Below, in pieces: positions 283-15,355 of a stretch of DNA of 15,355 bases (the first letter of the stretch is position 1; every line of letters begins with the position of its first letter). Under the pieces are notes generated by a model. It worked only from the letters and a program-made list of their open reading frames with translations, searched no databases and was not told where the DNA came from. Both the position numbers and the translations under genes were made by a program. Source of the DNA: a virus (taxonomy: Duplodnaviria > Heunggongvirae > Uroviricota > Caudoviricetes); the IMG/VR virus record IMGVR_UViG_2671180279_000001; one strand, 5' to 3'.

Positions 283-297
283 GTTGGAGTCATTACC
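1..297 (+). mobile_element. IS1 right end (partial element, continues upstream of the window)
   Basis: Sequence ends ...CATAAAACACTATCAATAAGTTGGAGTCATTACC at 297, which matches the IS1 terminal inverted repeat as I recall it; contains the 3' part of insB. Confidence 0.93.
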
Positions 298-862
298 ACT
301 GCGCCAGTTCGCCAGGCTTCGCGCGGGAATAAATTTTGTTGCCGGAAGCGTCATAAGCAACGATCCTCCCTTCTTCCACTTTGAATGCCTGCCCGAAGCG
401 GGCTTGTAATAAATCTGCCGGGATCGCAATTTTATCGGCAATATATTTTGAACCCGCAAAACTACCGCCAATCATAGAATCGTAAAGCTGCTTCTCCAGC
501 ATCTGAGAGCGTTGCTTTTCTTCATCTAATTGCTGCTGAAAATTTTTCGTAATTTCTGCCTTAACCTGGTCAACCTGTCCCGCATCGAGCAGCTTTTTCT
601 GGTCGATTTTTGACAGCATTTCCAGTGCCTCGATCGCCTTCTTCGGGTCTTCGATAGCGGCAAACTTAGCCAGTTTTTCCTCTGCAGCTTCTTTAGCCAG
701 GCGATGATTTTTTGCCTCGCCATTAAGCTCTGTAATTTTTTTTGTCGCCAGCGGTGCATCGAAGCCAATTTCTTTACCATCGTCGTGCACATAAACTGGC
801 AGGCCAGCAGTATCAATTTCTGCGTATTGTTTTCCGTTAATCTCGACCGTTTTCAGTTTCAT
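293..862 (-). CDS. Putative head scaffolding-like protein (charged, coiled-coil-like); C-terminus apparently truncated or replaced by the IS1 insertion
   Basis: ORF MKLKTVEINGKQYAEIDTAGLPVYVHDDGKEIGFD... is rich in K/E/A/Q, typical of scaffolds, and sits immediately after the head morphogenesis gene. The last Trp codon (296-298) and the stop codon (293-295) lie inside or across the IS1 terminus (291-297). The upstream in-frame ATG at 934 lies inside a hairpin, so the start at 862 is preferred. Confidence 0.5.
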   Translation of the reverse strand: MKLKTVEINGKQYAEIDTAGLPVYVHDDGKEIGFDAPLATKKITELNGEAKNHRLAKEAAEEKLAKFAAIEDPKKAIEALEMLSKIDQKKLLDAGQVDQVKAEITKNFQQQLDEEKQRSQMLEKQLYDSMIGGSFAGSKYIADKIAIPADLLQARFGQAFKVEEGRIVAYDASGNKIYSRAKPGELAQW

Positions 863-920
863 ATTAGTACCTGGTTTAAGTCTTCCGACAGTTACGCTGC
901 TCACCATCCGGATCGCAGCA

Positions 921-946
921 ATAAAAAAGGCCACCCGAAGGTAGCC
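921..946 (-). terminator. Hairpin plus U-tract between head morphogenesis and scaffold genes (possible intrinsic terminator or attenuator)
   Basis: Minus strand reads GGCTACC-TTCG-GGTGGCC followed by TTTTTTAT; a 7-bp stem with one G-U pair and a TTCG tetraloop. Confidence 0.35.
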
Positions 947-966
947 TGTTGTAATAAATGATTTAT

Positions 967-2082
967 TTAAATCCCTGCTTTTCTGAATACCTGTGCATCA
1001 CGCTCACGGAGCTGCTTCAGCGTCAGCCATTCGCCTTTATCGGTGTAAAATTCATCTGGCGACATACCACCATCCCGAATCAGCTTTGCTCGGGTTTCCC
1101 CCACAATCTGTTTTTGTCTGGTGTAAGGCTGACGCAAAAACCATTCCCTGTAGGTTGTATCTCCGGCCACCACGCCATCCATGCTGGCCCGCTCAGCCGG
1201 GGAAATATCGCGAACATCAATACCCAGTTCCTTCGCTGATTTCAGAATGAACGTTTCCGTTGAGCGGCAGCAGAAATGAATTTTTCCCGGCCCCTGCAAA
1301 TAAGGCACGCTGTGACCTACAGGTTTATTATTCAGCGTATATTTGAGGCGATCCCTGATTCGACATTGTGGCGTAGTACGATTATCAAGCGTTGATAACC
1401 ATTGCTTACCCTTAATCAAATCATTATTCGCGCTGGCAAAACTCTCACGGGCAGTAGCAGCAAGATGTCCAACCGCTGTTTTTGCAATGCTGGCCGCATT
1501 AGCCCGGCTCATCTGCAATGCACCATCCTGAAATCCCTTACTGACATGTCCCCGAATTTTTCTTGCGATCTGCTCATTGGTATCCCCCAGCAAAAAACCC
1601 TGACGCACTGTATTTGTTATGCGTCTGAGCCGATCCGCCTCAAGATCTGAGGCCCACTCACTGAGCAGTCGTCCCTGGAATGGTCGCGCCATTGCAGCGG
1701 CATAAAGTGCATCAGGAGAGATACCAACCAGAGGGTGAACATCAGCAACAAAATCAGGTAGCATAGAATCAAACAGACTTAACTGATAACCAGCCTCATA
1801 AATTGCCAGCTCGTTCAGCTCTCCGGAGAGACTGGTAAACATGCTGTTAATAGCAGTGCGGTTAACCTTTCTGACGCTCGCCAGAAGTGACTCCAGGCGC
1901 TTAACGGTAAAATTACCTGGATCGAGGCTGTCCAGTGCTATCAGCAGGCGAGCAGTAAGTTCCGCATCGCTGTCATTCAGTATTTTCACCATTCTGGCAG
2001 CCACGCCAGTGCTATAGCGGGATATCCAGACTGCATGAGCAATTGATTCATCACGCAGCCGTTCATTCACGGTTTGCATCAT
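967..2082 (-). CDS. Phage head morphogenesis protein (Mu F / SPP1 gp7-like minor head protein)
   Basis: 371-aa ORF placed directly after the portal gene (20-nt overlap), the usual portal/Mu-F-like arrangement; contains an LDNRTTPQCR segment resembling the Mu F-domain motif as I recall it. Confidence 0.7.
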   Translation of the reverse strand: MMQTVNERLRDESIAHAVWISRYSTGVAARMVKILNDSDAELTARLLIALDSLDPGNFTVKRLESLLASVRKVNRTAINSMFTSLSGELNELAIYEAGYQLSLFDSMLPDFVADVHPLVGISPDALYAAAMARPFQGRLLSEWASDLEADRLRRITNTVRQGFLLGDTNEQIARKIRGHVSKGFQDGALQMSRANAASIAKTAVGHLAATARESFASANNDLIKGKQWLSTLDNRTTPQCRIRDRLKYTLNNKPVGHSVPYLQGPGKIHFCCRSTETFILKSAKELGIDVRDISPAERASMDGVVAGDTTYREWFLRQPYTRQKQIVGETRAKLIRDGGMSPDEFYTDKGEWLTLKQLRERDAQVFRKAGI

Positions 2083-3469
2083 TGATTTCCATCAGCATTA
2101 CACTCTGATTTTTTAATTCATCGATCACTTCCTCTGGACGGGAATCCTGATCGATAAATTTCAACGCCTGCAACACCCGAACCGCATCAATCTGACGTAT
2201 ATCACCGCCCTGACGCAATGACTGAACAGCCAGCGCGGAGGATGAGTCAAACACCTGGGCAGATACATCCAGTTCAGTGCGCACATCCACATTGCCACCG
2301 CAACTCTCTCCGATCCATTCCGCCATTATCTGGAGAATATTATCGAGGGCATCTTCGAGGGAGTTCGCCATTGTATAAAGCGGCGAGTTTTCCTGCATTC
2401 GCTCTTCATTAGTCTGATCAACAGATTTGGTGGATGTATTTTCAGCACGCAGAAGTTTAGCGCCGGCATGACGCATCTGATTTTCCAGCTTCTCAAGTGA
2501 TGTTTCGCCAGATTCTATCGCTGCGCCACTATGTTCAACATATTCGAGGCCATTTTTTGTTCTGTCCTCAAAAATCGTAGCGGTGGATGCACCAACCGTC
2601 AGTTCTTCATTCCTGTCCAGCCCGTAGGCCACCAGCAATGGAACGCGGGCAACATGAAGAATATTGTCCTGCTCGCTCTGGCTTTGCCAGTGCTTGATAT
2701 TCAGCAAGCCAAGATTAAGCAATGGCGGTGTACCACGCATAAATCCTGTTTTCTTCGTGTACAGTGTTACCAGAGGAATATCATCACGGCTGGTATTCCA
2801 TGACTCATGAAGCGTCCAGACAGATTCGCCATTAGTGCCTTCGCTACGTCGATAAATTTCAACTCGACGGGGCATAATATGGCGGATCTGCTCCACCTTC
2901 TTCTGCCCGAAATCATCACCATCAATAATGATGACCTCTTTTATACGCAAATCAGTGAGAACAACTTTCCCTTTTTCAACTTTCGATTTCCATCCAATAA
3001 CCTGGCGTGGATTCAGCATCGTAACGTACGGACGACCACCGGTCGCGTTTTCATCGGCTTTTGTACGAATCTCTTTCATATCCGTTCGTGGATAGTCCAC
3101 CAGCGCATGTGCCACACCATACTGAAATGCGAGGCTGAAAAATTGCTGCGCCCACACATCCAGTCGGCTCCCCTCCATGTCGATATTTTCTGCATATTCC
3201 CTGATTTTTGCCGGCGTTTCCTCACTCAATACTGTCGGCTCTGCAAATATGCGCCCAATATTTTGCTTGATGCTTTCTTCATACACAGGAAGTAGCGTAG
3301 CCACAGACAGGCGTTTTTTATAAGCGTCTTCATCTTCGTTAGGCCATTTTGGGAGATAATTTTCCCCCTGCCTGCGCATTTCAAGCGTACCGCCCATCAG
3401 TGCGTCGTTAATATCCCACGCCTCCAGCATATCGTTATAGTCGAGGTTGGGTGTTGATATATCAGCCAT
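2063..3469 (-). CDS. Phage portal protein
   Basis: 468-aa ORF immediately downstream of the large terminase (stop and start 2 nt apart), acidic C-terminus; size and position are typical of a portal. Confidence 0.8.
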   Translation of the reverse strand: MADISTPNLDYNDMLEAWDINDALMGGTLEMRRQGENYLPKWPNEDEDAYKKRLSVATLLPVYEESIKQNIGRIFAEPTVLSEETPAKIREYAENIDMEGSRLDVWAQQFFSLAFQYGVAHALVDYPRTDMKEIRTKADENATGGRPYVTMLNPRQVIGWKSKVEKGKVVLTDLRIKEVIIIDGDDFGQKKVEQIRHIMPRRVEIYRRSEGTNGESVWTLHESWNTSRDDIPLVTLYTKKTGFMRGTPPLLNLGLLNIKHWQSQSEQDNILHVARVPLLVAYGLDRNEELTVGASTATIFEDRTKNGLEYVEHSGAAIESGETSLEKLENQMRHAGAKLLRAENTSTKSVDQTNEERMQENSPLYTMANSLEDALDNILQIMAEWIGESCGGNVDVRTELDVSAQVFDSSSALAVQSLRQGGDIRQIDAVRVLQALKFIDQDSRPEEVIDELKNQSVMLMEINDANRE

Positions 3470-3471
3470 AA

Positions 3472-4779
3472 TTAAATCCGAAGTGATGTGACTCTTCCGG
3501 TCGGTTTGACAATAGGGAATTGCTTAACGATGAAATAACCTCCGGCATCATTCGGGTGATCATTGCCAGATTTTTTATCAGGCTCCCCCTTCTCATCCCA
3601 GACCTGTTGCTCCAGAGATTCGGCATATAACGGGCAACGCTTCACATTAACTTTATAGCGACGCTCACCATTGGCATTGCAGAACATTGCATTCATTGAG
3701 TTAACGCGATCTTTTACTGGCGGGTTCGAGCTGTTCACCACAACGTTAAAACCAGCCTGCTTAAGCTGGGCTATATCCGTCGTACTTGCGTTACTTGATT
3801 TTCTGGAATCCCCGGAAGCATCTGGATAAATATAAATTTCCCTCACTTTCCGGTAATCATTCCCATCATACAGCCAGAAGCGTTCTTTAATGATGCGGAT
3901 CATATCCGGCGTATCGTAGGCATTGATGATTTCAGTTACCGCACATGGAAGCCCCAAACGCAGCACATGGACGATTCCCGCCATCTTTCCAACGTTAAAA
4001 TCCATCCCAATATAAATCGGCTCCCCTGGCTGCTCCACTTCTTCGCAATTATTCAGTTTCCGGTCAAACTGATGGTAAACAGTACCACTTGTCAGGTTAG
4101 TAAACTGTCCTCGAAGATAGGCTTTAATCAGCTCTGGAGGGTATGATTCAAGAAGCGAAGGAATGTAATCTGCTGGCAGGTTCTTTTCATTATCGAAAGT
4201 AGATGCCTGCACCAGACCATACAGTGAGGCCAGCTCTGTTTTTTCACGCACGGCTTTAACAAACTGCTCGTAGACAAATTTGAATCCTTCCGGCGTGGTT
4301 GTAACGTCAATACCGTTGCGAAGTCCATCAATCTTATAACGCATACGTGCAATTATCTTGCGCCACGCCGTTCTGGCTTTTTCCTTCGGCAAAATGTCCA
4401 GTTCATCCACCAACGCATTACCAATTTTGAAACCGACGATCGTTTGTGGCTTCTCCATCGATCTGCAGATAGTGGTTCCCCGATACTGGCGTCCGTAATA
4501 AAAGTGAACCTCTTTATTTCCCTCATTAATTTTTACGTTCAATCCCCAGTCAGCAGCAACTTCTTCTACTGTAGGGTAAAAAATATCGCGAATTTGGGGA
4601 TACGTTGGCGCAAAATATCCCTGATTTATACCTGGATGCTCCCAAATCCCCTTGCATATGCCGCCACACCCAACCCATATTTTGCCCGAGCCAAAACCAG
4701 CAATATAGGCTTTAAATTTATGGGGCATTGAAAGAAATCGCGCCTGAGGCACATTAAGCGTCGGAGAGATCATCTTCAT
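3472..4779 (-). CDS. terL: Terminase large subunit
   Basis: N-terminal Walker A-like AGFGSGK; C-terminal nuclease-like acidic motifs (GMDFN, YPDASGD). Overlaps the small-terminase stop. The ORF track begins at a GTG at 4782; the ATG at 4773 has the best spacing to an AAGGAG Shine-Dalgarno, so the exact start is uncertain. Confidence 0.85.
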   Translation of the reverse strand: MKMISPTLNVPQARFLSMPHKFKAYIAGFGSGKIWVGCGGICKGIWEHPGINQGYFAPTYPQIRDIFYPTVEEVAADWGLNVKINEGNKEVHFYYGRQYRGTTICRSMEKPQTIVGFKIGNALVDELDILPKEKARTAWRKIIARMRYKIDGLRNGIDVTTTPEGFKFVYEQFVKAVREKTELASLYGLVQASTFDNEKNLPADYIPSLLESYPPELIKAYLRGQFTNLTSGTVYHQFDRKLNNCEEVEQPGEPIYIGMDFNVGKMAGIVHVLRLGLPCAVTEIINAYDTPDMIRIIKERFWLYDGNDYRKVREIYIYPDASGDSRKSSNASTTDIAQLKQAGFNVVVNSSNPPVKDRVNSMNAMFCNANGERRYKVNVKRCPLYAESLEQQVWDEKGEPDKKSGNDHPNDAGGYFIVKQFPIVKPTGRVTSLRI

Positions 4780-5848
4780 CACTCCTTACTCTGGCATCAA
4801 CCACATTAATATTGATCGCCACAGGCTGGGGATGTTCATTATCTTCCACCGTTTCGATCTCTTTGCGCAGCTTCTGGTTTTCCATTCTGCGCCGTTCAAT
4901 TTCCAGTTCCTGTAGCCGTTTATCTGCACATAAAGCCCCGCCAGCAGAAAACAAACGCAACAATTCACGCCGGGCGGCAGCCTTATCCTCCAGCAGGATC
5001 TCAACGCCGAATTTTCCGAATTTTGCCCCTGCATATAATTGCCGCGCATCCCCATCAAGCAGAGTGGTATCAGCCATATAAAGCTGTCCCGTTCCCTCAC
5101 CGCAGCACTTCGGGCAGTCCGGATTGGGTATGGCGTTATCAACAAAGCCGAGGCCTCCATATTCCGGTTCGGGTTTGCCATCTCTGGAAGCCTGCGCCGC
5201 TGCCTTGTCGAATTCTGCTATATCGCGCCACTGGTAGAGATGATTCTCGCCCCAGCAATAACGGCAGTTAACACGGCGAAATTGTGCAAGCTGATTGGGG
5301 TCGGCCAGGACAATAGCCATCAACTGACTCACTAGTAAATCCAGGTCTGCGGTATAGCGTTTCTGGTACTGATTGCGGAAGTAGCTGATAGCGCGAAAAA
5401 CCCTGGCATTTCTAAGCATACGACTGGCGTTGCTGTTAGCTGTCGCACCTTGCCCCTCATAACCGGCTAGTCGGTACGCCTCTGTCGGCTTTTTACCCTG
5501 AGCAACAAGCATCGCAAACTTAGCCTGCTGGTCAGAAATGCCGAATTCATCGGGACAGAACGAAAATTCCTCCGCGTCGCCCTCATTCAGGCCCGCATCG
5601 AATACTGGCTTTTTTTCCTGAGATTTTTCGTTCCGCTTTTGTGCAGTCTGCGCAGATTTTTTCTGCGCACTTTTTTGCGCAGTTTTGCACATTTCTGTCT
5701 GCGCATTTTTCGGAGTTTTTTTGATGTAACGACGGGCTGTTGCGTAATTCAGTCCCCTTGCTTCACACCATGCCACCGGAGATATACCGGAGCGGGTGTA
5801 TTCAGCAATATACTCCTGCTGCAACGCCCCCCAGTCCGGTCTGCTCAT
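4754..5848 (-). CDS. terS: Terminase small subunit, unusually long (364 aa), with N-terminal HTH-like region, AQK-repeat linker and Cys-rich C-terminal region
   Basis: Motif KKPTEAYRLAGYEGQGATANSNASRMLRNARV resembles the conserved small-terminase (Terminase_2-like) signature; lies immediately upstream of and overlapping terL; contains CRYC...CPKCC. Confidence 0.7.
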   Translation of the reverse strand: MSRPDWGALQQEYIAEYTRSGISPVAWCEARGLNYATARRYIKKTPKNAQTEMCKTAQKSAQKKSAQTAQKRNEKSQEKKPVFDAGLNEGDAEEFSFCPDEFGISDQQAKFAMLVAQGKKPTEAYRLAGYEGQGATANSNASRMLRNARVFRAISYFRNQYQKRYTADLDLLVSQLMAIVLADPNQLAQFRRVNCRYCWGENHLYQWRDIAEFDKAAAQASRDGKPEPEYGGLGFVDNAIPNPDCPKCCGEGTGQLYMADTTLLDGDARQLYAGAKFGKFGVEILLEDKAAARRELLRLFSAGGALCADKRLQELEIERRRMENQKLRKEIETVEDNEHPQPVAININVVDARVRSDEDDLSDA

Positions 5849-5851
5849 CAG

Positions 5852-6103
5852 TTAGTCCTGATTTTTATCCACCCTGAGTAGTTCGCGCAGAGCAAAGGCA
5901 TCCCCTTTTCTGGCAAGCTTAAACAATGCCGCTCGTAACTCGGCTTCACCTTTCGCTCTGCCCTTACGGATGGCCGCATAAAAATCTGTCATTGCTTCCC
6001 GATTTTCTTTCAGTCGGTTCAGATCAACATCCAGAACGTCAGCGATTTGTTGTGCAGTCATCCGGCACGCTGCCAGAGACTCGACTTTCGAATACGGAAT
6101 CAT
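5852..6103 (-). CDS. Hypothetical small protein with HTH-like segment (83 aa)
   Basis: ORF with a G-rich Shine-Dalgarno (GGGGGTGA) 4 nt before the ATG; TAQQIADVLDVDLNRL looks helix-turn-helix-like; stop is 3 nt before the terS start. Confidence 0.4.
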   Translation of the reverse strand: MIPYSKVESLAACRMTAQQIADVLDVDLNRLKENREAMTDFYAAIRKGRAKGEAELRAALFKLARKGDAFALRELLRVDKNQD

Positions 6104-6971
6104 TTGTCACCCCCATTGATATGCAGGGTGTCTTCTTCCTGTATTTTTCGTGAAGGATTTTTACTGCAGCGTTGTTCCAGGTGACCTGATGGTGAATGCG
6201 TTTATGGCTGGCACCCATCAGTGAGATTTTTACGCACGACGGCGCATACATGACGGAGTAAAAACTTTTAACGTAGGTTCCGGAATCCAGATACAGCTCG
6301 GTCATTCCGCCGCTGTTTTTCTGCGTCTGTTTCTGCCCTAACTGGACAGCACCGATCGTCATAAACAATTCACCACAGCGACCGAGATTCGTGTACGTAT
6401 TCACATCCTCGTTAATGCGCCCCATGAATGAGAACGGTCGATCAACCGAACAGATAAAGCTGTTCATTGCCTTGCGTTTCACCCACGAAGCATGGCCGCC
6501 ATTGTCACCAAGAAAATCCCCGCCCTGCGACATAGCGATGGAAAGAGCAGGTATTGATTCGTAGTACGCCAGCATTTCAGAAAGGATCGCATCCAGTTTC
6601 CTTATCGGAAAATAGGCCTGGTCATAGTTGCGATCCACCCGAAACTGGAACTCGTGATAATCATCATCGAGCTGAATGAAGTATTTACACCCGACCAGTT
6701 TTGCCAGGTCGAAACAGGCATTACGGGCGTAAAAAATTGAGCGGCGGTCACAGAAATTATCGGCTTCGTCAAAACGACTGGCGATATCGGCTTTGGAAAA
6801 CACCAGCACCTGTTCACCAAATTCAGCCATGTACTGATTCCGTGTCTTATCTTCATCATCAACAACGATAAAAATTTTCCCGGTATAGCCAGCACGACGC
6901 AACGTCCGGTAAGTCAGAACTTTGTCCGGTCGCCCGTGAGTCAGAATAAAGGCGCAAAAATCATCACGCAT
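6039..6971 (-). CDS. Uncharacterised 310-aa protein, possibly Rossmann-like/GT-A-like fold; translationally coupled to the upstream ParB-like gene
   Basis: Start MRDDFCAF at 6971 is preceded by GAGGAGGAGGA (formed by the EEEE codons of the ParB-like gene) and overlaps that gene's stop as ATGCGTGA. Beta-strand-like hydrophobic runs are followed by acidic motifs (IFIVVDDED, YFIQLDDDY). I found no methyltransferase (D/NPPY), P-loop or PP-loop motif. Confidence 0.5.
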   Translation of the reverse strand: MRDDFCAFILTHGRPDKVLTYRTLRRAGYTGKIFIVVDDEDKTRNQYMAEFGEQVLVFSKADIASRFDEADNFCDRRSIFYARNACFDLAKLVGCKYFIQLDDDYHEFQFRVDRNYDQAYFPIRKLDAILSEMLAYYESIPALSIAMSQGGDFLGDNGGHASWVKRKAMNSFICSVDRPFSFMGRINEDVNTYTNLGRCGELFMTIGAVQLGQKQTQKNSGGMTELYLDSGTYVKSFYSVMYAPSCVKISLMGASHKRIHHQVTWNNAAVKILHEKYRKKTPCISMGVTNDSVFESRVSGSVPDDCTTNR

Positions 6972-7755
6972 ATTCCTCCTCCTCACCACCATGCATGATC
7001 TCCACCATGCGCTGCGTCATCCGGACAAATCCATTTTCAATAGCCTGCTGATAATCAATGATCACCAGCGCCGACTCCTCGAAAAAACACTGAATTTCAG
7101 AGGGGGCGTGAGCGTAATAGTCCGCAATTCTGCTGAAATTAAACACCGTGTGACGTTCTGCCGCACACAGGAGGAATTTCTCAATATCAGGCTCAAGGGA
7201 CGCCGAACGTATCCGGCTGATCAGCTCCTGAGTTTTCGTATCGTCGTACAGTTCACTGATATCCGGTTTACCGCCCGACGGCTCATAAACAGGCGTATCA
7301 ATTTTCGTCGTATACGGCTCCTCCTCATTTCCTGTACCGGGCAAAACATCCGTCAACAGTTCATCAATTTCTGTCGGGATGAAGCCTGTCAGGGAGACAT
7401 CAAAATCAGCATTGATTAGGTCCGACAGCTCCATCCGCAACAGATCTTCATCCCAGCCAGCATTCATCGGCAGGCGATTATCTGCCAGGCGGTACGCCTT
7501 TTTCTGCTCATCCGTCAGGCCAGACAGAACAATGACCGGAACAGAATCCATTTTGAGCATTTCAGCCGCCATAACACGACCGTGACCCGCAATAATTTCG
7601 CCCTTTTCGTCAATCAGCACCGGATTAGTCCAGCCGAATTGCTTAATACTTTCTACCAGTTGTGCCACCTGCTCAGGGCTGTGCGTCCTGGCGTTGTGCG
7701 CATACGGTGACAATTCTTGTAATGGGCGATAGACTATCTTTAATTTCTCGCTCAT
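6964..7755 (-). CDS. ParB N-terminal domain (ParB/sulfiredoxin-like) protein
   Basis: N-terminal 100 aa (IVYRPLQELSPYAHNARTH...IIAGHGRVMAAEML...VPVIVL) matches the ParB/Srx-fold pattern with a GHGR variant of the GERR box; C-terminal 150 aa unassigned. The position after Rz-trkG matches the ynaK/ydaY slot of the K-12 Rac prophage as I remember it (unverified). Confidence 0.7.
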   Translation of the reverse strand: MSEKLKIVYRPLQELSPYAHNARTHSPEQVAQLVESIKQFGWTNPVLIDEKGEIIAGHGRVMAAEMLKMDSVPVIVLSGLTDEQKKAYRLADNRLPMNAGWDEDLLRMELSDLINADFDVSLTGFIPTEIDELLTDVLPGTGNEEEPYTTKIDTPVYEPSGGKPDISELYDDTKTQELISRIRSASLEPDIEKFLLCAAERHTVFNFSRIADYYAHAPSEIQCFFEESALVIIDYQQAIENGFVRMTQRMVEIMHGGEEEEYA

Positions 7756-7767
7756 ACAGCCTTGCTT

Positions 7768-7805
7768 TATGAATAAAACGCACCCCAGCAGCCAGTGCTA
7801 CTGGG
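7768..7805 (-). terminator. Putative intrinsic terminator downstream of trkG
   Basis: Minus strand reads CCCCAG-(12 nt)-CTGGGG followed by TGCGTTTTATT; it sits between the trkG stop and the ParB-like start. Confidence 0.45.
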
Positions 7806-7892
7806 GACGGAGGGGTTGCTGGTAAAGTTAGGTATTGGATCAATGAGTGAGTCAACATAATATTAAACTCACAATTATAAATCAGCCATATA

Positions 7893-9368
7893 TTAGGAGC
7901 GCCAAAAAAAACCTGAAAACAATATAATAACAGGATAAATTTCAAGGCGACCAAGAATCATAGCTATGCACATTAAACATTTTGCAATGTCATTAAGCAC
8001 TCCGAATGACGATGCAGTAGCCCCAAAACCTAATCCCATATTATTAATACATGCAGCCACTGTTGCAAATGATGTAAGAAAATCATATCCCATACCATTT
8101 AACACCAGTATAAAAAACACCGTGAAGAGAGTATAAAGAAAAAAGAAACTCCATACAGACCTCATTACACGATCTGTAACTATCTTCCCTCCTACATTTA
8201 CACTCAACAACGCTCTGGGATGAGAAAGCTGATTTATCTCGTGTTTGCTTTGTTTGAAAAGTATAAGAAATCGAAGTGACTTAATTCCACCACAAGTTGA
8301 ACCTATACATCCCCCAAAGAAACTTGACAACAGCAAAAACACTATCGTGTGCGTGGGCCAACTTGCATAATCCTGCGTAGCTAAACCATTATCAGTGAGC
8401 ATGGAGCTGGCAAGAAAAAACGAATGAATAAAACTTCCATGCAAGTCATACATACCTATATGCCAGACCTGGAAAGAGGTAACAATGATCACCCCTAAGG
8501 CTATTAACAGAAAGAAACGAAGTTCAATATCTCTGATTAAAGGTTTTATCGTTTTCCTGCTAATAACAATATACCAAAGAGTGAAGTTGAAAGCCGATAG
8601 CAGGGAAAAAGAACCAGCCACCAGCTCAACCAAATAGTTATTAAAATATCCGATACTCTCGCTATGAGTTGAGAAACCACCAAGCGAAACTGTGGAAATC
8701 CCGTGACAAATAGCATCAAACAAAGGCATTCCTGCAAGTCTATAACAGACAATACAAGCAATACCTAATAAAGAATAAGTTATCCACAGTGTCCGTGACG
8801 TATCGGCCAGGCGGGGAGTGAGTTTGTCATCCTTAAATGGCCCCGGCATTTCTGACTGATAAAGCTTTGCACCACCAATACCCAATAATGGCAATACAGC
8901 AACCGCCAGAACAATAACTCCTAAACCACCTATAAAATTTAACTGTGACCGATAGTACAAATATGCCCGAGGTAATGAACTAACATCATCAATTACAGTT
9001 GCTCCTGTTGTTGTTATTCCAGAAACCCCTTCAAACAGAGCATCAATGAACGTTAAATTAAGTTCTGAGTCAATCCATAAAGGGAATGCACTAATAACAG
9101 AAAACAAAATCCAAAACATTACAATTATAATAAACCCATCACGGGTACGTAATTGAATGCCAGATTTCTTAGTTGTATACCACGCTCCGCCACCAATGCA
9201 AAAAAATATAACGAAAGTTATAAAGAAAACGAACAGGCTTTTTTCTTTATAAAACAATGCTACAACCATTGGTGGCAACATTGAAAGACTATAGAGCCAA
9301 ACCAGGAACCCACACATATGAGTAACAACTCTTACATGAGATGTATTCATATCTAAATATTCTTTCAA
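7893..9368 (-). CDS. trkG: TrkH/TrkG-family potassium uptake protein (prophage cargo gene)
   Basis: Polytopic membrane protein with selectivity-filter-like glycine motifs (GITTTGATV, GGCIGSTCGGIK, NNMGLGFG); sequence from MNTSHVRVVTH... matches my recollection of E. coli TrkG of the Rac prophage. Strongly AT-rich relative to its neighbours. The start is either a TTG at 9368 with an AGGTGG Shine-Dalgarno or the ATG at 9350. Confidence 0.9.
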   Translation of the reverse strand: MKEYLDMNTSHVRVVTHMCGFLVWLYSLSMLPPMVVALFYKEKSLFVFFITFVIFFCIGGGAWYTTKKSGIQLRTRDGFIIIVMFWILFSVISAFPLWIDSELNLTFIDALFEGVSGITTTGATVIDDVSSLPRAYLYYRSQLNFIGGLGVIVLAVAVLPLLGIGGAKLYQSEMPGPFKDDKLTPRLADTSRTLWITYSLLGIACIVCYRLAGMPLFDAICHGISTVSLGGFSTHSESIGYFNNYLVELVAGSFSLLSAFNFTLWYIVISRKTIKPLIRDIELRFFLLIALGVIIVTSFQVWHIGMYDLHGSFIHSFFLASSMLTDNGLATQDYASWPTHTIVFLLLSSFFGGCIGSTCGGIKSLRFLILFKQSKHEINQLSHPRALLSVNVGGKIVTDRVMRSVWSFFFLYTLFTVFFILVLNGMGYDFLTSFATVAACINNMGLGFGATASSFGVLNDIAKCLMCIAMILGRLEIYPVIILFSGFFWRS

Positions 9369-9396
9369 TTATAACCACCTTGCTGCAATATTATGA

Positions 9397-9430
9397 TTAT
9401 ACTGTATAAAATTTAACTCCTCTTAGATCT
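9397..9430 (-). promoter_or_regulatory. Candidate sigma-70 promoter for trkG (-10 TATAAT at 9397-9402; -35 poorly defined)
   Basis: Minus strand reads cagTATAATcataatattgcagcAAGGTGGttataaTTG; a perfect -10 hexamer about 20 nt upstream of the Shine-Dalgarno. Confidence 0.3.
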
Positions 9431-9487
9431 TACTTCACTGTTCCTTATGAAACAATCATCAAAATGAATCATATTGTAGTTAAGATT

Positions 9488-9952
9488 TTACTTTAAACAC
9501 TGCTCGGTTATGTATTGCTGAGCACCTTCAAGTTGGGCCTGCATCATTACCAGTCGTTCCCGGAGGGTGAAATAATCCCGTTCAGCGGTGTCTGCCAGTC
9601 GGGGGGAGGCTGCATTATCCACGCCGGAGGCGGTGGTGGCTTCACGCACTGACTGACAGACTGCTTTGATGTGCAACCGACGACGACCAGCGGCAACATC
9701 ATCACGCAGAACATCATTTTCAGCTTTCGCATCAGCTAACTCCTTCGTGTATTTTGCATCGAGCGCAGCAACATCACGCTGACGCATCTGCATGTCAGTA
9801 ATTGCCGCGTTCGCCAGCTTCAGTTCTCTGGCATTTTTGTCGCGCTGTTCTTTGTAGGCGATGGCGTTATCACGGTAATGATTAACACCCCATGACAGGC
9901 AGACGACGATGCAGATAACCAGAGCGGAGATAATCGCGGTTACTCTGTTCAT
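9488..9952 (-). CDS. Rz: i-spanin Rz
   Basis: [76 protein letters not shown]... is near-identical to lambda/phage-21-type Rz as recalled; the ATG at 9950-9952 overlaps the endolysin stop as ATGA. The ORF track's GTG at 9964 is probably not the start. Confidence 0.92.
9547..9732 (-). CDS. Rz1: o-spanin Rz1 (embedded in Rz in the +1 frame)
   Basis: [57 protein letters not shown]...; lipobox VVGC and proline-rich region characteristic of Rz1. Confidence 0.88.
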
Positions 9953-10446
9953 TGCTGACCCCACAAACAGATTTCACGCTCAATCTCACGACGAGTCATG
10001 AGACCTTTCCATTGCTTACCGCCAGCATATGTCCAGCGACGTAGCTGATCACATGCGCCTTTGATATCGCCCTGGTTTATTTTGCGAAGAAGCGTCGATG
10101 TTCTGAAATTGCCAGCACCCACGTTGTAAACGAATGAGTAAAGAGCGCCGCGCGTTGTTTCCGGTATATCGACTTTGATGTACGGGTTAATTTGTCTGGC
10201 GACCGTGGCAAGGTCTTTATTCAGGAGGGCTTTGCATTCTGCTTTGGTATACGTTTTACCGAGCATGATGTCTTTTCCTGTATGCCCGTGACATACAGTC
10301 CATACACCAACAATATCTTTGTATGGTATGTAGCTGACACCTTCCAGACCATCGTTACCACTTGGGCCAGTGATTAACACTGATGCTATAGCAATTGCTC
10401 CGCCACCAATAGCAGCAGCAACGACTTTTCGTAATGATGGAGGCAT
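9949..10446 (-). CDS. R: SAR endolysin (phage-21 R / RrrD-like lysozyme)
   Basis: [33 protein letters not shown]... is a Gly/Ala-rich N-terminal signal-anchor-release domain followed by a T4-lysozyme-like domain; matches DLP12 RrrD / phage 21 R as recalled; start overlaps the holin stop as TAATG. Confidence 0.92.
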
Positions 10447-10661
10447 TATTCACCTCTCGCAGCCTTGCGCTTATCTTCTTTAATCTTGAAATAAAGGTTT
10501 GTCAGGTACGTCAGCAGGCCAAATACCAGACTACCCAGCACACCGATTGCAGCCCACTGTGACGGAGTTACTCTATCGAGCAACTGTAAAAACCAGTAGC
10601 CAGCACTGCCTGCGGAGGTGCCGTAGGCAATGCCTGTTGAAATTTTGTCCATGGATTTCAT
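10446..10661 (-). CDS. S: Class II pinholin (phage-21 S21 / EssD-like) with dual-start motif MKSM
   Basis: 71-aa product [71 protein letters not shown] matches S21 as recalled; GGAGGTGAGG Shine-Dalgarno precedes the ATG at 10659-10661, and a second start (MDK) lies at 10650-10652. The 90-aa N-terminal extension in the ORF track is not supported. Confidence 0.88.
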
Positions 10662-10758
10662 AGCCTCACCTCCGCACGGAACGGATGGCATAGTTATTAT
10701 GTGTAGGCTTTCAGACACATCAATCAGAGCCTTAATTGATATATATGCTGGAGACGAT

Positions 10759-10787
10759 GCAATATAAAAAGCTCGCCGTAGCGAGCT
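10759..10787 (-). terminator. Intrinsic terminator downstream of the lipoprotein pair
   Basis: Minus strand reads AGCTCGC-TACG-GCGAGCT followed by TTTTTATATTG (perfect 7-bp stem). Confidence 0.6.
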
Positions 10788-10912
10788 AATAAAATGTATT
10801 TCTCTGATATTATGTTTATTTGTATTAGCTCAGACTTGACATCACAGGTTTCGTATATAGAACATCATCAAATCTGTCAGTTTGCTATGAATGAGATATA
10901 GTAATTGAAGAG

Positions 10913-11308
10913 CTAACCTCGCATGTCAAAGCCAGATTTCTGAAAATCTCTGTAGACTTCCGGATTGTTGAAGGCCGGAAATTTGGCTTTATGAGCTGCG
11001 GACTTTATCGCTTCGCAATAGGCTTTATCACCGTTACTGGTAGATATTTTTAACGCCGTGCCATCCTGAGAGAATTCCATATGCAACCTGCATTTTTTCC
11101 CTTTCCAGTTATGCGGCTCATCAAGTTTGGCATTAATTGCAGCTCTGATTCCCCGCGCTTGCGCCCCCCATTCATCCTGATCATCCCAGCGTCCTGAACT
11201 GCAACTACCTGTAGCAGTAGTTTTGTGGCAATCTGAAGGGTGTAAAGGTGTGCATCCCGCAACAAAACCGACCCAAAAAGTCAACATAACGATTTTCTTT
11301 AATCCCAC
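10913..11308 (-). CDS. Predicted outer-membrane lipoprotein with diverged TolA C-terminal (domain III)-like domain
   Basis: GTG start with GAGGAG Shine-Dalgarno; signal peptide MGLKKIVMLTFWVGFVAGC with lipobox VAGC and Thr at +2; C-terminal region GKKCRLHMEFSQDGTALKISTSNGDKAYCEAIKSAAHKAKFPAFNNPEVYRDFQ shares the spacing and two Cys of the downstream paralog and of TolA domain III. Confidence 0.7.
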   Translation of the reverse strand: MGLKKIVMLTFWVGFVAGCTPLHPSDCHKTTATGSCSSGRWDDQDEWGAQARGIRAAINAKLDEPHNWKGKKCRLHMEFSQDGTALKISTSNGDKAYCEAIKSAAHKAKFPAFNNPEVYRDFQKSGFDMRG

Positions 11309-11458
11309 TTCTTGCTCCTCAATCCATTAAAATCTCAGCAATAGTAGTTGTTACGTCCGCCACTGGCTCAGAGCTGACTATCCGCTAAATTTAGCTCAGT
11401 GCCGTAGCTGTGTCAGAACAAACCTAAGCCGAAACCGTTTATTACAAAACAATAAATA

Positions 11459-11887
11459 TCAGGGTTTAAAATCCAGCACCCCATTTTGAAATACTTTATA
11501 TACTTCCGGCGAAGGGGGGGCAGGTATATCAGCATTCTTTATCGCATTCATCGCTTCACGACATAAATCGAGGTCTCCACTTTCTCTTTTAACCTCCAGT
11601 AGAAGGCCATTCGGGGCCATATGCATTCTCAGTGTACACTCTTTTCCTGAATACTTACTCGCATCCCCGAACTGTTTTTCGATGGCGCTCTTGATTTGAT
11701 GGGCATACAGACGGATATCCTCACTAACATCAGAAGTACGTTCAGATGAACTCACATACTGTGTCTCTATTGCTTTATCGGAGTAATATGATGTACGGTC
11801 ATGATAATTTGTCGATACAGCATCAGTGCACCCGATAATAATCCCACTAATAATCAACGTAAGAATTGATGCGCTACGAAAACCCAT
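11459..11887 (-). CDS. Predicted outer-membrane lipoprotein carrying a TolA C-terminal (domain III)-like domain
   Basis: Signal peptide MGFRSASILTLIISGIIIGC with lipobox IIGC and Thr at +2; C-terminal 80 aa YAHQIKSAIEKQFGDASKYSGKECTLRMHMAPNGLLLEVKRESGDLDLCREAMNAIKNADIPAPPSPEVYKVFQNGVLDFKP align colinearly with the end of chromosomal E. coli TolA as recalled (...YAGQIKSAIESKFYDASSYAGKTCTLRIKLAPDGMLLDIKPEGGDPALCQAA...IPKPPSQAVYEVFKNAPLDFKP), both ending in LDFKP; GAGGA Shine-Dalgarno. Confidence 0.85.
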   Translation of the reverse strand: MGFRSASILTLIISGIIIGCTDAVSTNYHDRTSYYSDKAIETQYVSSSERTSDVSEDIRLYAHQIKSAIEKQFGDASKYSGKECTLRMHMAPNGLLLEVKRESGDLDLCREAMNAIKNADIPAPPSPEVYKVFQNGVLDFKP

Positions 11888-11917
11888 TTTTCCTCACATA
11901 TGTCATATAGTAAAGGA

Positions 11918-11947
11918 TTATATATACCGTTGTTTTGGACGCTCAAA
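11918..11947 (-). promoter_or_regulatory. Candidate sigma-70 promoter for the lipoprotein pair (TTGAGC-18 nt-TATAAT)
   Basis: Minus strand: -35 TTGAGC (11942-11947), 18-nt spacer, -10 TATAAT (11918-11923), about 30 nt upstream of the ATG at 11887. Confidence 0.4.
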
Positions 11948-12473
11948 CAGCGAATCAGATCAAATAAAACGCACATTTGTTAACATTTACACAAAGTCTG
12001 CGTGGGATATTCTGAAAGAATATCCATAATGTGGAGAGAATCTATTGAAGTGCATGGTGCCGGGTGCCTCCCGGTGAACAAAATGTTCGTGATACCTGTC
12101 GGCGACAGAAAAGGTTAATGGTATCACCCCACCGCACAGGGGGATTCACCATGCAGGAGTTTTCTTAGCAAACTCACTGCGCGCCCGGCAACTCCCAACC
12201 ACATAAAATGCGGAGTTTGTGGTATTTATGCATATAACTCGCAGGAATTATCTTAAAAAACTGATGTCGATCCGGATTAAAAAGAAGCAGGTCATCATCA
12301 GATGACTGGAAAAAAGGAAAACAAAAAATACTCATCATACAGTTTTGATTGCAGGGATGAGCCTGCTATGCACAATATGCAGAATATAAGCAAGATAAAA
12401 ATATGCAGGCATATTATTTCGGATTTTGTTATTAACACAACCTTTTTAATAATCATTTGGCATACAATAAACC

Positions 12474-12504
12474 AGCCCAAAAAGAACCGCCTAAACAGGC
12501 GGTT
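12474..12504 (-). terminator. Intrinsic terminator-like hairpin (minus strand)
   Basis: AACCGCCT-GTTT-AGGCGGTT (8-bp stem) followed on the minus strand by CTTTTTGGG. Confidence 0.45.
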
Positions 12505-12823
12505 GGTCAATACAAAGGATGCTTCGTCTTTATTATAGTAATCTGAGGCGTCGGGTGTCTTGTATCAGACAACATATTGTCCCGCTAAACAGCGAATTAC
12601 AAACCACCCTGCAATGATCTCTCATCTCATTTTATATGAGTTGACGACATCAGGATAACGCATCATCAGCCCCTGCCAAGAAATATCAAAACTCCCGCCA
12701 GCAATGTGTTATCACAATATTGTAAAAAAAACACAGCACCGAAACTATAACTGGTCTCTGTTATAATTTGGAGCAGAAAGACCAGTTGCCCAACTAGCAG
12801 CATTCTCCCCTGCTTTCCTGACG

Positions 12824-12852
12824 TAAAAAAACCGCATTAAGCGGTTTTTTTA
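12824..12852. terminator. Bidirectional intrinsic terminator; on the minus strand a tR'-like terminator downstream of the Q gene
   Basis: AAAAAAACCGC-ATTAA-GCGGTTTTTTT: perfect stem flanked by an A7 and a T7 run, about 80-100 nt downstream of the Q stop (12932), the classic position of tR' in lambdoid late regions. Confidence 0.7.
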
Positions 12853-12931
12853 CGATGTCCATGTCTGCAATCCGCCTCGCGATACAGCTTTGCGAAGCAT
12901 AGCAAAATTGAAGCAGTTTATACGTAAGAAA

Positions 12932-13474
12932 TCAAGCCATTTTCTCAGCAAATGATTCACGCATGGGAATATATAGGGCATACTCAGCAACAGCTAACCA
13001 ATTAGCAATCCGTTTTTCGCATGTGCTAAAACACCACTCTGGGTGTGCATCATTTAGCAATTCAGCCATTTTGCGCTTAGTCATCCCCCGCCCTTCATAG
13101 CGTTGCCGGAGAATGCAAATCAATCCTGGATGCTCTGCCAGCACCTCACTTATGACTCGATCAATACATAACGCCTCTGCATCAGTACAATGCGCCAGCC
13201 AGCTCTTTTGCTTGCCGTTGATCATCTCTCGCAAAAACGCTTCCAGCTCAGCTTTCTCTATTCCCGCTTTTTTCATTCTGCGCAGGGCTTCATTAATGGC
13301 TGTTTTCGTCAGTTTTTTGGATGCCAACAACTGATTGAACATATTCCCTGACCTGCCACCGCCAATATACGACCAGCGCCCCCACATACGTAGTTTTCCC
13401 TGAATCCAGACACTTTCCAGCGTGGTGAGGCGAAGGTGTTCTCCGCTTTTTCCTGTATTCGTTGGGTAAATCAT
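12932..13474 (-). CDS. Putative late-gene antitermination protein Q (Q-like, non-lambda type)
   Basis: 180-aa ORF immediately upstream of the tR'-like terminator and the lysis cassette; N-terminal RMWGRW motif resembles the WG-W motif of Q-family proteins (recalled from DLP12 QuuD); start overlaps the upstream stop as ATGA. Confidence 0.55.
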   Translation of the reverse strand: MIYPTNTGKSGEHLRLTTLESVWIQGKLRMWGRWSYIGGGRSGNMFNQLLASKKLTKTAINEALRRMKKAGIEKAELEAFLREMINGKQKSWLAHCTDAEALCIDRVISEVLAEHPGLICILRQRYEGRGMTKRKMAELLNDAHPEWCFSTCEKRIANWLAVAEYALYIPMRESFAEKMA

Positions 13475-13761
13475 AAATGACCTTTCTTTCTCCAGATTTC
13501 TTGTGTGCGAAAAACCCCTTCAGCATGCATCAGGCGCAATTCTTCTTTGGTGTAATCGCTGGTTTTTACCCGCCCGTCGATTAGATCGTGGCATGAGCTA
13601 CAGGCTATCGCCGCCTGCATATCGTGTGGTTTTGTCGCTGTTCCGCACGTCCCCGCCAGCCTGTAATGCGCCAGCACAGAGGTTTCGGGATTGTGATTGC
13701 AGTAGCCAGGGATTCTGATCTGGCACATCTGGCCTTTAGCCGCTTTACGTAAATTCACCAT
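13471..13761 (-). CDS. DUF1364 / YbcO-like phage protein (putative nuclease, Cys-rich)
   Basis: MVNLRKAAKGQMCQIRIPGYCNHNPETSVLAHYRLAGTCGTATKPHDMQAAIACSSCHDLIDGR... is closely similar to DLP12 YbcO as recalled (…LRKAARGRECQVRIPGVCNGNPETSVLAH…); coupled to flanking genes by TAATG/ATGA overlaps. Confidence 0.75.
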   Translation of the reverse strand: MVNLRKAAKGQMCQIRIPGYCNHNPETSVLAHYRLAGTCGTATKPHDMQAAIACSSCHDLIDGRVKTSDYTKEELRLMHAEGVFRTQEIWRKKGHL

Positions 13762-14360
13762 TACGCAAACTCCAGTAGTTGTGCGGCCACATTTTCAACT
13801 TCCTCCTGAGAGGAGAATTTACGGAACAGAATCCAGTTCCACAGCACATTCAGTACAGATTTATAAACCTGCTGAAACTCGACTTCGTCCATATTCGCAA
13901 AAGCGATGGATTTTGCCCGACGCCCACGGCTACCGTCCGGATAAATATGCTCGGTGTAAAATCCGGCCTGAATGGTTACCCACTCGCGGAAAGCCTCAAA
14001 CGACTTTAGCAACGCCGTATCCCGGGTTCTACGAGTCGCAACGGTGTTAAGGTATTGCTCTGCGGCATCACTCAGGGCTGGCGTGTGTTCCCGACCAACT
14101 GATTCGCACAGGTAATCAACGAAACCAGACAGCAGTTCTCGTTCGCGAGGCGTGATCGCCCCACCGACCGGAGTCCAGTAATCGAATCCCAGTTGCAGGA
14201 GTTTGAAAAAACGCTTGTGGAATGCGTAGTTACGCACACGCTTAAAGTCTGCGTGTATCCACTCACCTATTTTGATTTGATGCAGAAAATCGCAACTCTC
14301 CGGCGTCGCCGGGAGAAGTAAACCAGAAGAAGTTTGTTTGACCAGTTGTATATGCGCCAT
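13761..14360 (-). CDS. Nin-region phage protein, DUF1367-like (assignment from memory, weak)
   Basis: 199-aa ORF translationally coupled to the YbcO-like gene; its position upstream of YbcO-like and Q matches lambdoid nin regions. Confidence 0.45.
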   Translation of the reverse strand: MAHIQLVKQTSSGLLLPATPESCDFLHQIKIGEWIHADFKRVRNYAFHKRFFKLLQLGFDYWTPVGGAITPRERELLSGFVDYLCESVGREHTPALSDAAEQYLNTVATRRTRDTALLKSFEAFREWVTIQAGFYTEHIYPDGSRGRRAKSIAFANMDEVEFQQVYKSVLNVLWNWILFRKFSSQEEVENVAAQLLEFA

Positions 14361-14633
14361 TTCTCAATCTCTCGATGGCGCAGTGCAGCAGATGCCAGTT
14401 GTTCAGGCTGACGTATAAAGTATAAATAAACTGGTTCCAGTGTAAAGCCCCCACCTTAATGGAATAAAAACCAAACAACAGATTGCTGGGATACAAACAA
14501 CGCTTATTATTAAAAGCGGTTAAACAAATTAAATTTTAATGTTATGCAAATTTGTCAGATCACCATAATATCTCATTTGAAAACCGCTGAAATAACAATC
14601 CTATCAGGATTAATCATATTAAGGTGAGTAAAT

Positions 14634-14720
14634 ATGGAAAACAACAAATCTGCACATTACGCTCCTTTTTTATCTGTAATACTTTTTGTTTTTTGCTGTG
14701 TATGGGCATTATTTTTATAA
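14634..14720 (+). CDS. Candidate small hydrophobic protein (28 aa) with strong RBS
   Basis: AAGGTGAG Shine-Dalgarno 6 nt upstream of the ATG at 14634; product MENNKSAHYAPFLSVILFVFCCVWALFL has a polar N-terminus and one predicted transmembrane helix; absent from the ORF track because of its length. Confidence 0.3.
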   Translation: MENNKSAHYAPFLSVILFVFCCVWALFL

Positions 14721-14828
14721 AAATATTCACAGATAAAATAAACTCGCCGAATCAGGTTAAGTGTGGGTGCGTTGAGGATGCCTGACACATCAGAGGCGGC
14801 GAGGGATTTCTCCCTCGCCTAGTCACTC

Positions 14829-14984
14829 TTACTCCTCAGGTTCGTAAGCTGTGAAGACAGCGACCTCCGTCTGACCGGTTCGGATTCGCACCTCGCAGAG
14901 GTCTTTCCTCGTTACCAGTGCCGTCACTATGACGGTTAAACAGATGACAATCAGTGCGACTAACATCGCCTTTTGCTGCTTCAT
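14829..14984 (-). CDS. hokD: Hok/Gef-family type I toxin (HokD/RelF-like)
   Basis: 51-aa product MKQQKAMLVALIVICLTVIVTALVTRKDLCEVRIRTGQTEVAVFTAYEPEE matches HokD/RelF as recalled; AAGGAG Shine-Dalgarno 9 nt upstream; a GGCGAGGGA-GAAA-TCCCTCGCC hairpin (14791-14812) just 3' of the stop is consistent with hok mRNA 3' structure. Confidence 0.85.
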   Translation of the reverse strand: MKQQKAMLVALIVICLTVIVTALVTRKDLCEVRIRTGQTEVAVFTAYEPEE

Positions 14985-15057
14985 AGCCTGCTTCTCCTTG
15001 CCTTCCGGCGCGTAAGAGGCTAACCTACATGTGCAAAGCATGAAATTGGCCTCAGAT

Positions 15058-15355
15058 TGTACTGACCCCAAAAAGTTGGACAGTTAAACACGAGGCATAT
15101 AGGTCTGATTCCGATATTCAATTGGAGTCAGACCTTTTAATTTCAGGCTAATTCTTCTGCTGTTGTAGTATTCAATATATTCCGTAACAGCATCCTTCAG
15201 TTCGCTTATATTACTGAACTCATCAAGATAAAAACACTCCGACTTTAAGGTTCCAAAGAAACACTCCACCACAGCATTATCCAGACAATTGCCTTTTCTG
15301 GACATGCTTTGTTTAATACCATGTTCTTTAAGGATATTTTGATATCTTCTCATAC
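15058..15355 (-). mobile_element. IS3-family insertion sequence (IS150-like), end of element; continues past window end
   Basis: Terminus TGTACTGACCCCAAAAAGTTGGACAG starts at 15058 with TG (IS3-family ends are TG...CA); contains the transposase C-terminus on the minus strand. Confidence 0.85.
15084..15355 (-). CDS. IS3-family transposase (OrfB), C-terminal part; N-terminus outside window
   Basis: ...[31 protein letters not shown]...[28 protein letters not shown] is the conserved C-terminal region of IS3-family DDE transposases; reading frame open to the window edge. Confidence 0.85.

Follow-up and report, generated by a model that had tools for sequence, protein, structure and literature searches.

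The hok gene and the IS150 end at the edge of the window

The stretch of DNA analyzed here, called the window below, is the 15,355-nucleotide (nt) IMG/VR virus record IMGVR_UViG_2671180279_000001 (Caudoviricetes), and its last part carries a hok toxin gene lying next to one end of the insertion sequence (IS) IS150. The hok open reading frame (ORF; 14829..14984, minus strand) has 51 codons and a stop codon, with the ATG at 14984 and the stop at 14829-14831, and is intact. Its HokD-type product of 51 amino acids (MKQQKAMLVALIV...EPEE) matches the Pfam family PF01848 (HOK_GEF) with 83.6 bits and an E value of 7e-24 (cut-off 22), and the identical gene of strain ECCHD184 (locus L001) is named hokD by PGAP. 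Downstream of the stop codon, the 3' untranslated region (UTR) contains a GC-rich hairpin (14798..14819, minus strand; GGCGAGGGATTTCTCCCTCGCC, sense GGCGAGGGAGAAAUCCCUCGCC), which is also intact and forms in the predicted folds of both the intact and the chimeric RNA. The fold-back inhibition (fbi) element of the hok mRNA 3' end was read from the sequence at 14765..14777 (minus strand; sense CCUCAACGCACCC). On the other side of the ATG, the Shine-Dalgarno (SD) sequence GGAG of hok lies at 14997..14994 (minus strand). The mok reading frame (14829..15041, minus strand) shares the frame of hok, starts 19 codons farther upstream with the ATG at 15041, and comprises 70 codons in total. Its SD sequence GAGG (15053..15050, minus strand) lies 4 nt inside the flank, counted from the IS terminus at 15058.

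The IS terminus TGTACTGACCCC starts at 15058, leaving a gap of exactly 73 nt (14985-15057) between it and the hok ATG. The sequence from this point to the cut made by the window end (15058..15355, minus strand) is the right end of IS150, an element of the IS150 group of the IS3 family, with its terminal inverted repeat TGTACTG...; the right inverted repeat (IRR) reads TGTACTGACCCCAAAAAGTTGGAC..., and it is identical at 298 of 298 positions to the last 298 nt of IS150 from Escherichia coli K-12. It includes the 3' end of orfB (stop at 15084-15086), and the 89-amino-acid ORF fragment 15353->15084 is the C terminus of the IS150 transposase OrfB (rve_2, 81.2 bits; rve_3, 50.6 bits), which reads toward mok/hok. 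The original prediction, made by a model from the letters alone, had placed an IS3-family element upstream of an intact hok ORF with an intact 3' hairpin; all of this was borne out, the element being IS150 itself.

Uninterrupted versions of the same locus were found. Strain ECCHD184 is 100% identical to the window over 14560-15057 and then continues into unrelated non-IS sequence, and window 1-15058 is found in one piece, with 100% identity, in several complete genomes (e.g., strain H7). On account of these empty sites, the arrangement in the window is attributed to an insertion event. The flank next to IS150 shows no decay relative to the uninterrupted relatives and, judged by this comparison, the insertion of IS150 in the prophage hok locus is recent and strain specific. 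The exact hok-IS150 junction is absent from 5426 complete E. coli genomes, in which the best matches (95.9-96.2%) come from other alleles, and exact-junction scans of a genome collection with one genome per species and of viral contigs gave no match. A metagenome scan yielded the identical 24-nt junction in a single contig (L007; ERZ773248 NODE-4735). At the same position of a sister allele in a finished genome (L011), a 1443-bp IS150 is flanked by a GAT duplication. Modeled on these relatives, the far side of the element in the strain of the window would consist of the GAT duplication followed by TAATGTTAAGCG...GGGGCTTTTCTC...CAAGCACCC and the promoter TTGGCG/TAGAAT.

The metagenome contig (L007, 1-1560) combines two kinds of hok leader. 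Its left flank is a prophage hokD-type leader joined to IS150 at exactly the site used in the window, and its right flank is an R1-plasmid-type hok leader that starts 7 nt past the insertion site of a plasmid copy (L014), with no target duplication. It is either an IS150-mediated recombinant between a plasmid and a prophage or an assembly chimera and is therefore unusable for reconstructing the far junction of the window.

The native leader in uninterrupted relatives

Although named "sok", the Rfam family RF01794 (gathering score, 59) models the hok leader on the sense strand. In the uninterrupted relatives it matches 175 nt ending at the hok start codon, with 116.5 bits in L001 and 119.9 bits in L002. 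At the gathering threshold, Rfam returned no sok/hok match in the window; a permissive re-scan of the window gave RF01794 with 38.1 bits, and the alignment is convincing only for about model positions 79-157. Because of the score of 38.1 bits in the window versus 116.5 and 119.9 bits in the empty-site relatives, we consider the hok of the window to be an interrupted member of the family.

The relatives also supply the elements that lie farther upstream. A sigma-70-like hok promoter (TTGGCG-17-TAGAAT) is located in L001 7 nt upstream of the first base matched by RF01794, beyond the insertion point of IS150. In the minimum free energy fold of the 400-nt hok mRNA of L001 (z = -7.2), the 5' sequence GGGUGCUUGAGG (nt 1-12) is paired with the 3' sequence CCUCAACGCACCC. 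Such pairing of the two mRNA ends, tac with fbi, is characteristic of hok mRNAs, as known from the R1 system. The RF01794 leader, the promoter, and the tac-fbi pairing in the relatives together lead us to describe the native state as a canonical hok/sok locus, and this intact allele is conserved at at least 99% in 76 records. The alignment to intact loci shows that the native locus is not limited to about 70 nt, the situation that would have spoken against a loss of regulatory sequence: a 175-nt leader is present in the relatives and is cut by the IS. The comparison with relBEF loci drawn in the original prediction failed, as relBE is absent upstream of hok in the empty-site relatives, which have the full hok leader and promoter instead.

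What IS150 cuts off and what stays

IS150 cuts the hok leader at about nt 97 of 175, a position that is the 5' arm of the Sok terminator hairpin on the other strand, and the 3-bp target starts 1 nt after a conserved GCCTC, the complement of the mok SD. The claim that the upstream regulatory region had probably been removed is correct for one part of this region and wrong for the other. The hok promoter, the tac domain with its 5' tac/anti-tac stem, and the first hairpins are separated from mok-hok, and from 15058 on, IS150 stands in place of the Sok stem-loop and U-tract terminator seen in L001. Retained, and 100% identical to the uninterrupted relatives, are the sok promoter, the SD and ATG of mok, the SD and ORF of hok, the 3' hairpin, and fbi. 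In its sense sequence, fbi is complementary to the 5' tac of the intact leader. With tac displaced by IS150, it is left without a partner in the window, where GGGTGCTTGAGG was not found.

To compare the retained segment, the IS-proximal 85 nt from eight different hok loci were aligned (alignment A1). The invariant blocks are TTG (the start of the sok -35), GTAAGAGGC followed by TAnnnT (the sok -10), CAT (the complement of the mok ATG), and GCCTC; all of them fall within the 73 nt of the window, and the retained segment with the mok blocks corresponds to about RF01794 model positions 84-157. A sok-like antisense promoter, which the original prediction proposed to look for within 14985-15057, was assigned to 14998..15026 (plus strand), with a -35 of TTGCCT (14998-15003), a 17-nt spacer, and a -10 of TAACCT (15021-15026). 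By position it is homologous to the R1-type promoter TTGCGC-17-TATCCT; in a consensus promoter scan it fell below the threshold, and the assignment is therefore by homology only. The truncated sok (15033..15057, plus strand) comprises about the first 25 nt of the antisense RNA (the inferred start being accurate to +/-2 nt), namely, the 5' single-stranded recognition tail and the beginning of the terminator stem. In L001, native Sok is predicted to fold into a 9-nt tail and a long hairpin followed by UUUUCUCU, and IS150 enters the 5' arm of this hairpin after GGCCUCAGAU. A complete sok gene with promoter, tail, and stem-loop terminator is thus not found in the window, which keeps the promoter and about 25 nt.

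IS150 recurs at the same site of other hok loci

Full-length copies of IS150 (1443 bp) were found at the corresponding position of seven further loci, each flanked by a target duplication of its own: CTT in a prophage hokD allele (L004), GAT in the sister allele with a truncated hok (L011), GGT in hokC (L005 and L013), GTT in hokB (L012), CTT/CACTT in hokA (L016), TGG in an R1-type plasmid hok (L014), and GGT in a second plasmid Hok locus (L015). The transposases of L004 and L005 are annotated as frameshifted. The 3-bp target starts 1-3 nt after GCCTC (1 nt in most loci and 2 nt in hokB), and the site is unaffected by the size of the Sok hairpin. With a 146-nt junction as the query (at least 80% covered), the junction with IRR toward hok was detected in 1575 of the 5426 complete E. 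coli genomes, and about half of the records with an IS150 right end, in evenly sampled search rows, carry a copy at this site. The same orientation in all eight loci first suggested that insertion is orientation specific. This was ruled out by a synthetic query joining the leader to the left inverted repeat (IRL), which revealed the opposite orientation in 105 genomes, and clean opposite-orientation insertions at the same site were found in hokA (L019, CTT) and on a plasmid (L017, GGT). The site is preferred, and the orientation is not fixed.

Laboratory evolution provides insertions that are independent of the junction-seeded searches. De novo IS150 insertions have been reported at position 16972 of REL606 in three evolved lineages and another at 16989 (PMC5419217). 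Position 16972 is exactly the GGT triplet of hokC, and 16989 is the 3' base of the hairpin, a secondary IS150 site. In the same Table 3, the coordinates 582,237 (insA-7/hokE) and 1,272,468 (trg/mokB) map to cusA and chaB in NC_012967.1; its rows or columns seem to be shifted, and we used only the hokC coordinates, the only ones that map as stated. Genes of hok/sok loci have also been listed among those adjoining insertion hotspots of mobile elements (bioRxiv 10.1101/527788). Together with the sokE and sokA insertions described in PMC11551753 and our genome survey, these reports agree with the earlier statement that IS insertions at hok loci recur. Short similarities between the IS150 subterminal sequence and the R1 leader (ATGCCTCGTG and GGGGCTAT), noticed by eye, are not conserved at other target loci and were dismissed.

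One further chromosomal locus joins two hok leaders. In L018 (NZ_CP027591.1 2514736-2519295), one IS150 lies between a prophage hokD-type leader and an inverted hokB leader, with no duplication, an arrangement that looks like the product of recombination (an inversion) of two IS150 copies, each of which had earlier inserted into a hok leader. The same junction was found in nine chromosomes (H200-H208), several of them from cattle.

The prophage neighborhood

The hok locus belongs to a defective lambdoid prophage beside trkG, in which terminase, head, and lysis genes are followed by Q-like DUF1133, DUF1364, and DUF1367 genes and then by hok; hok sits upstream of the DUF1367, DUF1364, and Q-like genes. 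The AT-rich spacer that separates the DUF1367 gene from the 3' end of hok contains an ORF of 28 amino acids (14634-14720, plus strand; MENNKSAHYAPFLSVILFVFCCVWALFL) that would encode a hydrophobic peptide and is preceded by a strong SD sequence (AAGGTGAG). It had no match in NCBIfam and is without annotation in the identical locus L001, and it could be a chance ORF or the gene of a small membrane peptide. An Rfam match to the small RNA STnc100 (86.6 bits; gathering score, 47) covers window 11998-12184 (minus strand), downstream of the prophage's Q-like antiterminator gene, and the same element is present in L001.

The hok 3' UTR of the window is uninterrupted. In chromosomal hokC and in an unrelated plasmid hok, an IS186/IS421-type element lies about 80 to 190 nt downstream of the hok stop codon (L013, 1160-2264; L015, 1150-2262; REL606, 15443-16555), a placement which suggests that the 3' UTR of hok contains a second IS-specific hotspot.

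Discussion

That IS150 was inserted into a canonical hok leader at this position is, in our opinion, practically certain. What the insertion does to the toxin can be proposed from the parts that were cut off. Lacking its promoter and tac, the normal hok mRNA would no longer be made, and since it cannot be made, the toxin would be effectively silenced. In the R1 hok/sok system, tac is needed for the activation of hok. A mok-hok RNA without tac could still arise through weak transcription out of the IS150 3' end or through transposase read-through. In the predicted fold of such a chimeric read-through RNA, fbi is unpaired, the 3' UTR still pairs with the mok start region (SD and ATG), and a GCCUCG segment of IS150 pairs with the mok SD.

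On the antisense strand, the sok promoter would still fire into IS150, probably giving a chimeric antisense RNA that ends at an IS150 hairpin. This RNA would be fully complementary to any read-through RNA running from the IS into hok and would oppose residual transcripts. The candidate surrogate terminator is a terminator-like match at 15101..15145 (plus strand), in which a 15-bp hairpin (15101-15135) is followed by TTTTAATTTCA. For the plus-strand RNA of 15033-15145 (about 110 nt), the predicted fold has a free energy of -40.9 kcal/mol and a z score of -7.25; the GGCCUC of Sok pairs with a GAGGC of IS150, and the 15-bp hairpin is followed by UUUUAAUUUCA. On this model, a chimeric Sok-IS150 RNA with the IS150 hairpin as its surrogate terminator could be made.

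Several points weigh against the proposal that IS150 has split a canonical hok/sok locus and silenced its toxin. The window stops inside IS150, so that the far flank, the duplication, and the 5' leader 1.4 kb away lie beyond view. The survey was seeded with the junction of the window and shows recurrence at this site, not that other leader positions escape. The sok -10 (TAACCT), assigned by homology only, is weak, and the IS150 hairpin is a mediocre terminator candidate, as the scan gave 1 match versus 0.6 expected by chance. We infer the silencing from the anatomy of the locus and from knowledge of R1 hok/sok, and the uncertainty about it is real, since sokE::IS150 is able to revert and has a genetic phenotype (PMC11551753). 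With all of this considered, we find the proposal as a whole, including the silencing, reasonably probable, and the "taming" of a type I toxin by IS150 plausible.

It might instead be argued that the locus has been rewired, with an outward promoter at the 3' end of IS150 or a hybrid -10 (TACA/AT, the slash marking the junction) driving mok-hok, low-level or conditional production of Hok, a Sok crippled by the loss of its stem-loop, and physiological consequences for the strain. The 3' end of IS150 faces hok, an orientation that would allow transcription out of the IS into hok, as originally predicted, and both SD sequences, the mok ATG, and the hok ORF are all intact. An outward-facing promoter at the IS150 3' end has been described, and outward transcription was seen in 12 of 55 downstream regions, although the activity is modest and inconsistent and often undetectable (PMC11101190). 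On the hok strand, a consensus scan of the terminal 300 nt of IS150 detected no outward promoter, and a relaxed scan returned only the hybrid at the junction, in which the hexamer TACAAT is preceded at a 16-nt spacing by a weak -35 (CTGTCC). The phenotype of sokE::IS150 is measurable and is relieved by sokE+ (PMC11551753). However, a chimeric transcript would be without tac, in its predicted fold the 3' UTR pairs with the mok start region and IS sequence with the mok SD, and the sok promoter and the Sok 5' tail are kept, so that a read-through RNA would be fully complementary to the chimeric antisense. At other hok loci, about 29% of the complete E. coli genomes have the arrangement in stable form. 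Rewiring therefore seems to us unlikely. A little less unlikely, and still doubtful, is a neutral insertion, in which chromosomal and prophage hok/sok loci would be inert and mediate no killing even when intact, the insertion would have no functional effect, and the data would show only the target preference of IS150. The K-12 loci have indeed been called "putatively inactivated" (PMC11551753), and the occurrence of both orientations at the site fits an insertion bias better than a specific selected outcome. However, the intact allele has every canonical element, from the promoter and the 116.5-bit leader to the tac-fbi pairing and the ORF, and its conservation in 76 records is difficult to reconcile with an inert locus; Hok homologues are toxic when overexpressed (preprint), and sokE::IS150 is phenotypically not neutral (PMC11551753).

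Two further explanations concern the structure itself. The original prediction pointed to a relBE-hokD locus whose upstream partner genes and regulation had been removed or replaced by the IS. The toxin is of the HokD type and differs from K-12 HokD in one residue, and relE of K-12 lies 71 nt upstream of hokD. However, the homology to K-12 breaks off 14 nt before the ATG (window 14998), the sequence of window 14999-15057 belongs to the hok leader and is not relE-proximal, and the empty-site relatives run into the full hok leader and promoter with no relBE; the empty-site alignment refutes this explanation, to which we give practically no chance. It is only slightly more conceivable, and very improbable, that the junction is an artefact of assembly, a misjoin at a repeat at the end of a contig. 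The window does end 298 nt into a multicopy IS, the exact junction occurs in none of the complete genomes (best, 95.9-96.2%), and the far flank of the sole metagenome contig that has it does not match. Such a misjoin would, however, have had to fall precisely on the terminus of IS150 and on a recurrent target position, where a finished genome shows a clean GAT duplication in the sister allele, and the identical 24-nt junction was obtained independently in that metagenome contig. An IS150 insertion into a canonical hok leader remains the explanation that we prefer.

It is tempting to combine these observations into a broader hypothesis, in which IS150 has an intrinsic, near site-specific preference for the 5' arm of the Sok terminator, hok loci serve it as safe landing pads, and a chimeric antitoxin RNA results. 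The 3-bp target would then start 1-3 nt after GCCTC, and a further, secondary target would be the 3' base of the hairpin. With IS150 oriented as in the window, its terminal GAGGC and 15-bp hairpin would rebuild a stem and terminator for truncated Sok, so that a chimeric antitoxin persists, and hok/sok loci riding on conjugative plasmids and prophages would aid the spread of IS150. We put this forward tentatively and consider it rather improbable in its entirety. Of all this, only the nucleotide-level site preference across hok paralogues and the possible chimeric Sok might merit more work.

The interpretation presented here explains why a hokD-type toxin gene has just 73 nt of leader between itself and an IS, and it corrects the expectation that relBE should lie upstream of a hokD-type gene. 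The event is best described as a recent, strain-specific inactivation or rewiring in an otherwise canonical prophage hok/sok module. One site in the hok leader, defined at the level of single nucleotides, gathers IS150 in hokA, hokB, hokC, prophage hokD-type, and plasmid hok loci, which bears on the annotation of hok/sok loci as intact or disrupted. It also bears on "parallel" IS150 mutations in evolution experiments, in which mutational bias and selection are hard to separate, and on IS-mediated chromosomal rearrangements, as IS150 copies at different hok loci recombine (hokD-IS150-hokB in L018).

Compared with known systems, the intact allele shares the order of R1 hok/sok (parB), i.e., promoter, tac, mok, Sok target, sok promoter, hok, and fbi. 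It also resembles R1 in the overlap of the sok promoter with the hok SD region, in its RF01794 match, and in the tac-fbi pairing. Unlike in R1, mok of the window is in frame with hok, as in chromosomal loci, and the locus is interrupted and resides in a defective prophage; some R1-type plasmid copies also have IS150 at the same site (L014). The Qin relBE-hokD (relF) locus of K-12 has a nearly identical Hok protein, with likewise nearly identical hok SD, ORF, and 3' UTR, and the same type of prophage neighborhood upstream of the Q gene. However, relE replaces the mok/sok leader there from 14 nt upstream of the ATG, whereas the window has hok leader and then IS150. With the K-12 homology stopping at window 14998, the window does not belong to the relBE-hokD (relBEF) loci, and the K-12 arrangement is the derived one.

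The closest counterparts are other hok loci that carry IS150. Insertions of this kind have been described as sokE::IS150 in E. coli XL1-Blue and more than 400 natural isolates and as sokA::IS150 in MG1655 (PMC11551753). As in the window, IS150 lies in the sok gene or hok leader of a chromosomal hok locus and parts hok from its 5' regulatory domain (sokE being known to us by its published description). The locus is a different one, the window having an allele of the hokD type borne by a prophage. The target in natural alleles of hokA (L016 and L019) is the homologous position, GCCTC+1. In hokA of K-12 (L006; MG1655 3720448-3722111), IS150 has the opposite orientation and lies 32 nt from the ATG with no target duplication, and about 41 nt of the leader next to IRL are missing relative to the natural hokA::IS150 allele L019, which is consistent with a secondary, IS-adjacent deletion that followed insertion at the common site or close to it. 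The hokC::IS150 alleles, both natural (strain 266917_2, L005) and de novo (evolved REL4536 lines, PMC5419217), have the orientation, the 73-nt distance between ATG and IS, and the position in the Sok terminator arm that are found in the window. Unlike the window, hokC belongs to the chromosomal core genome, between dnaJ and nhaA. Because its flanks are only about 80-85% similar and its duplication is GGT, not GAT, we regard hokC::IS150 as an independent event. The insertion in the window is a new instance, in a prophage hokD-type allele, of the documented insertions of IS150 into sok/hok leaders and not a new system.

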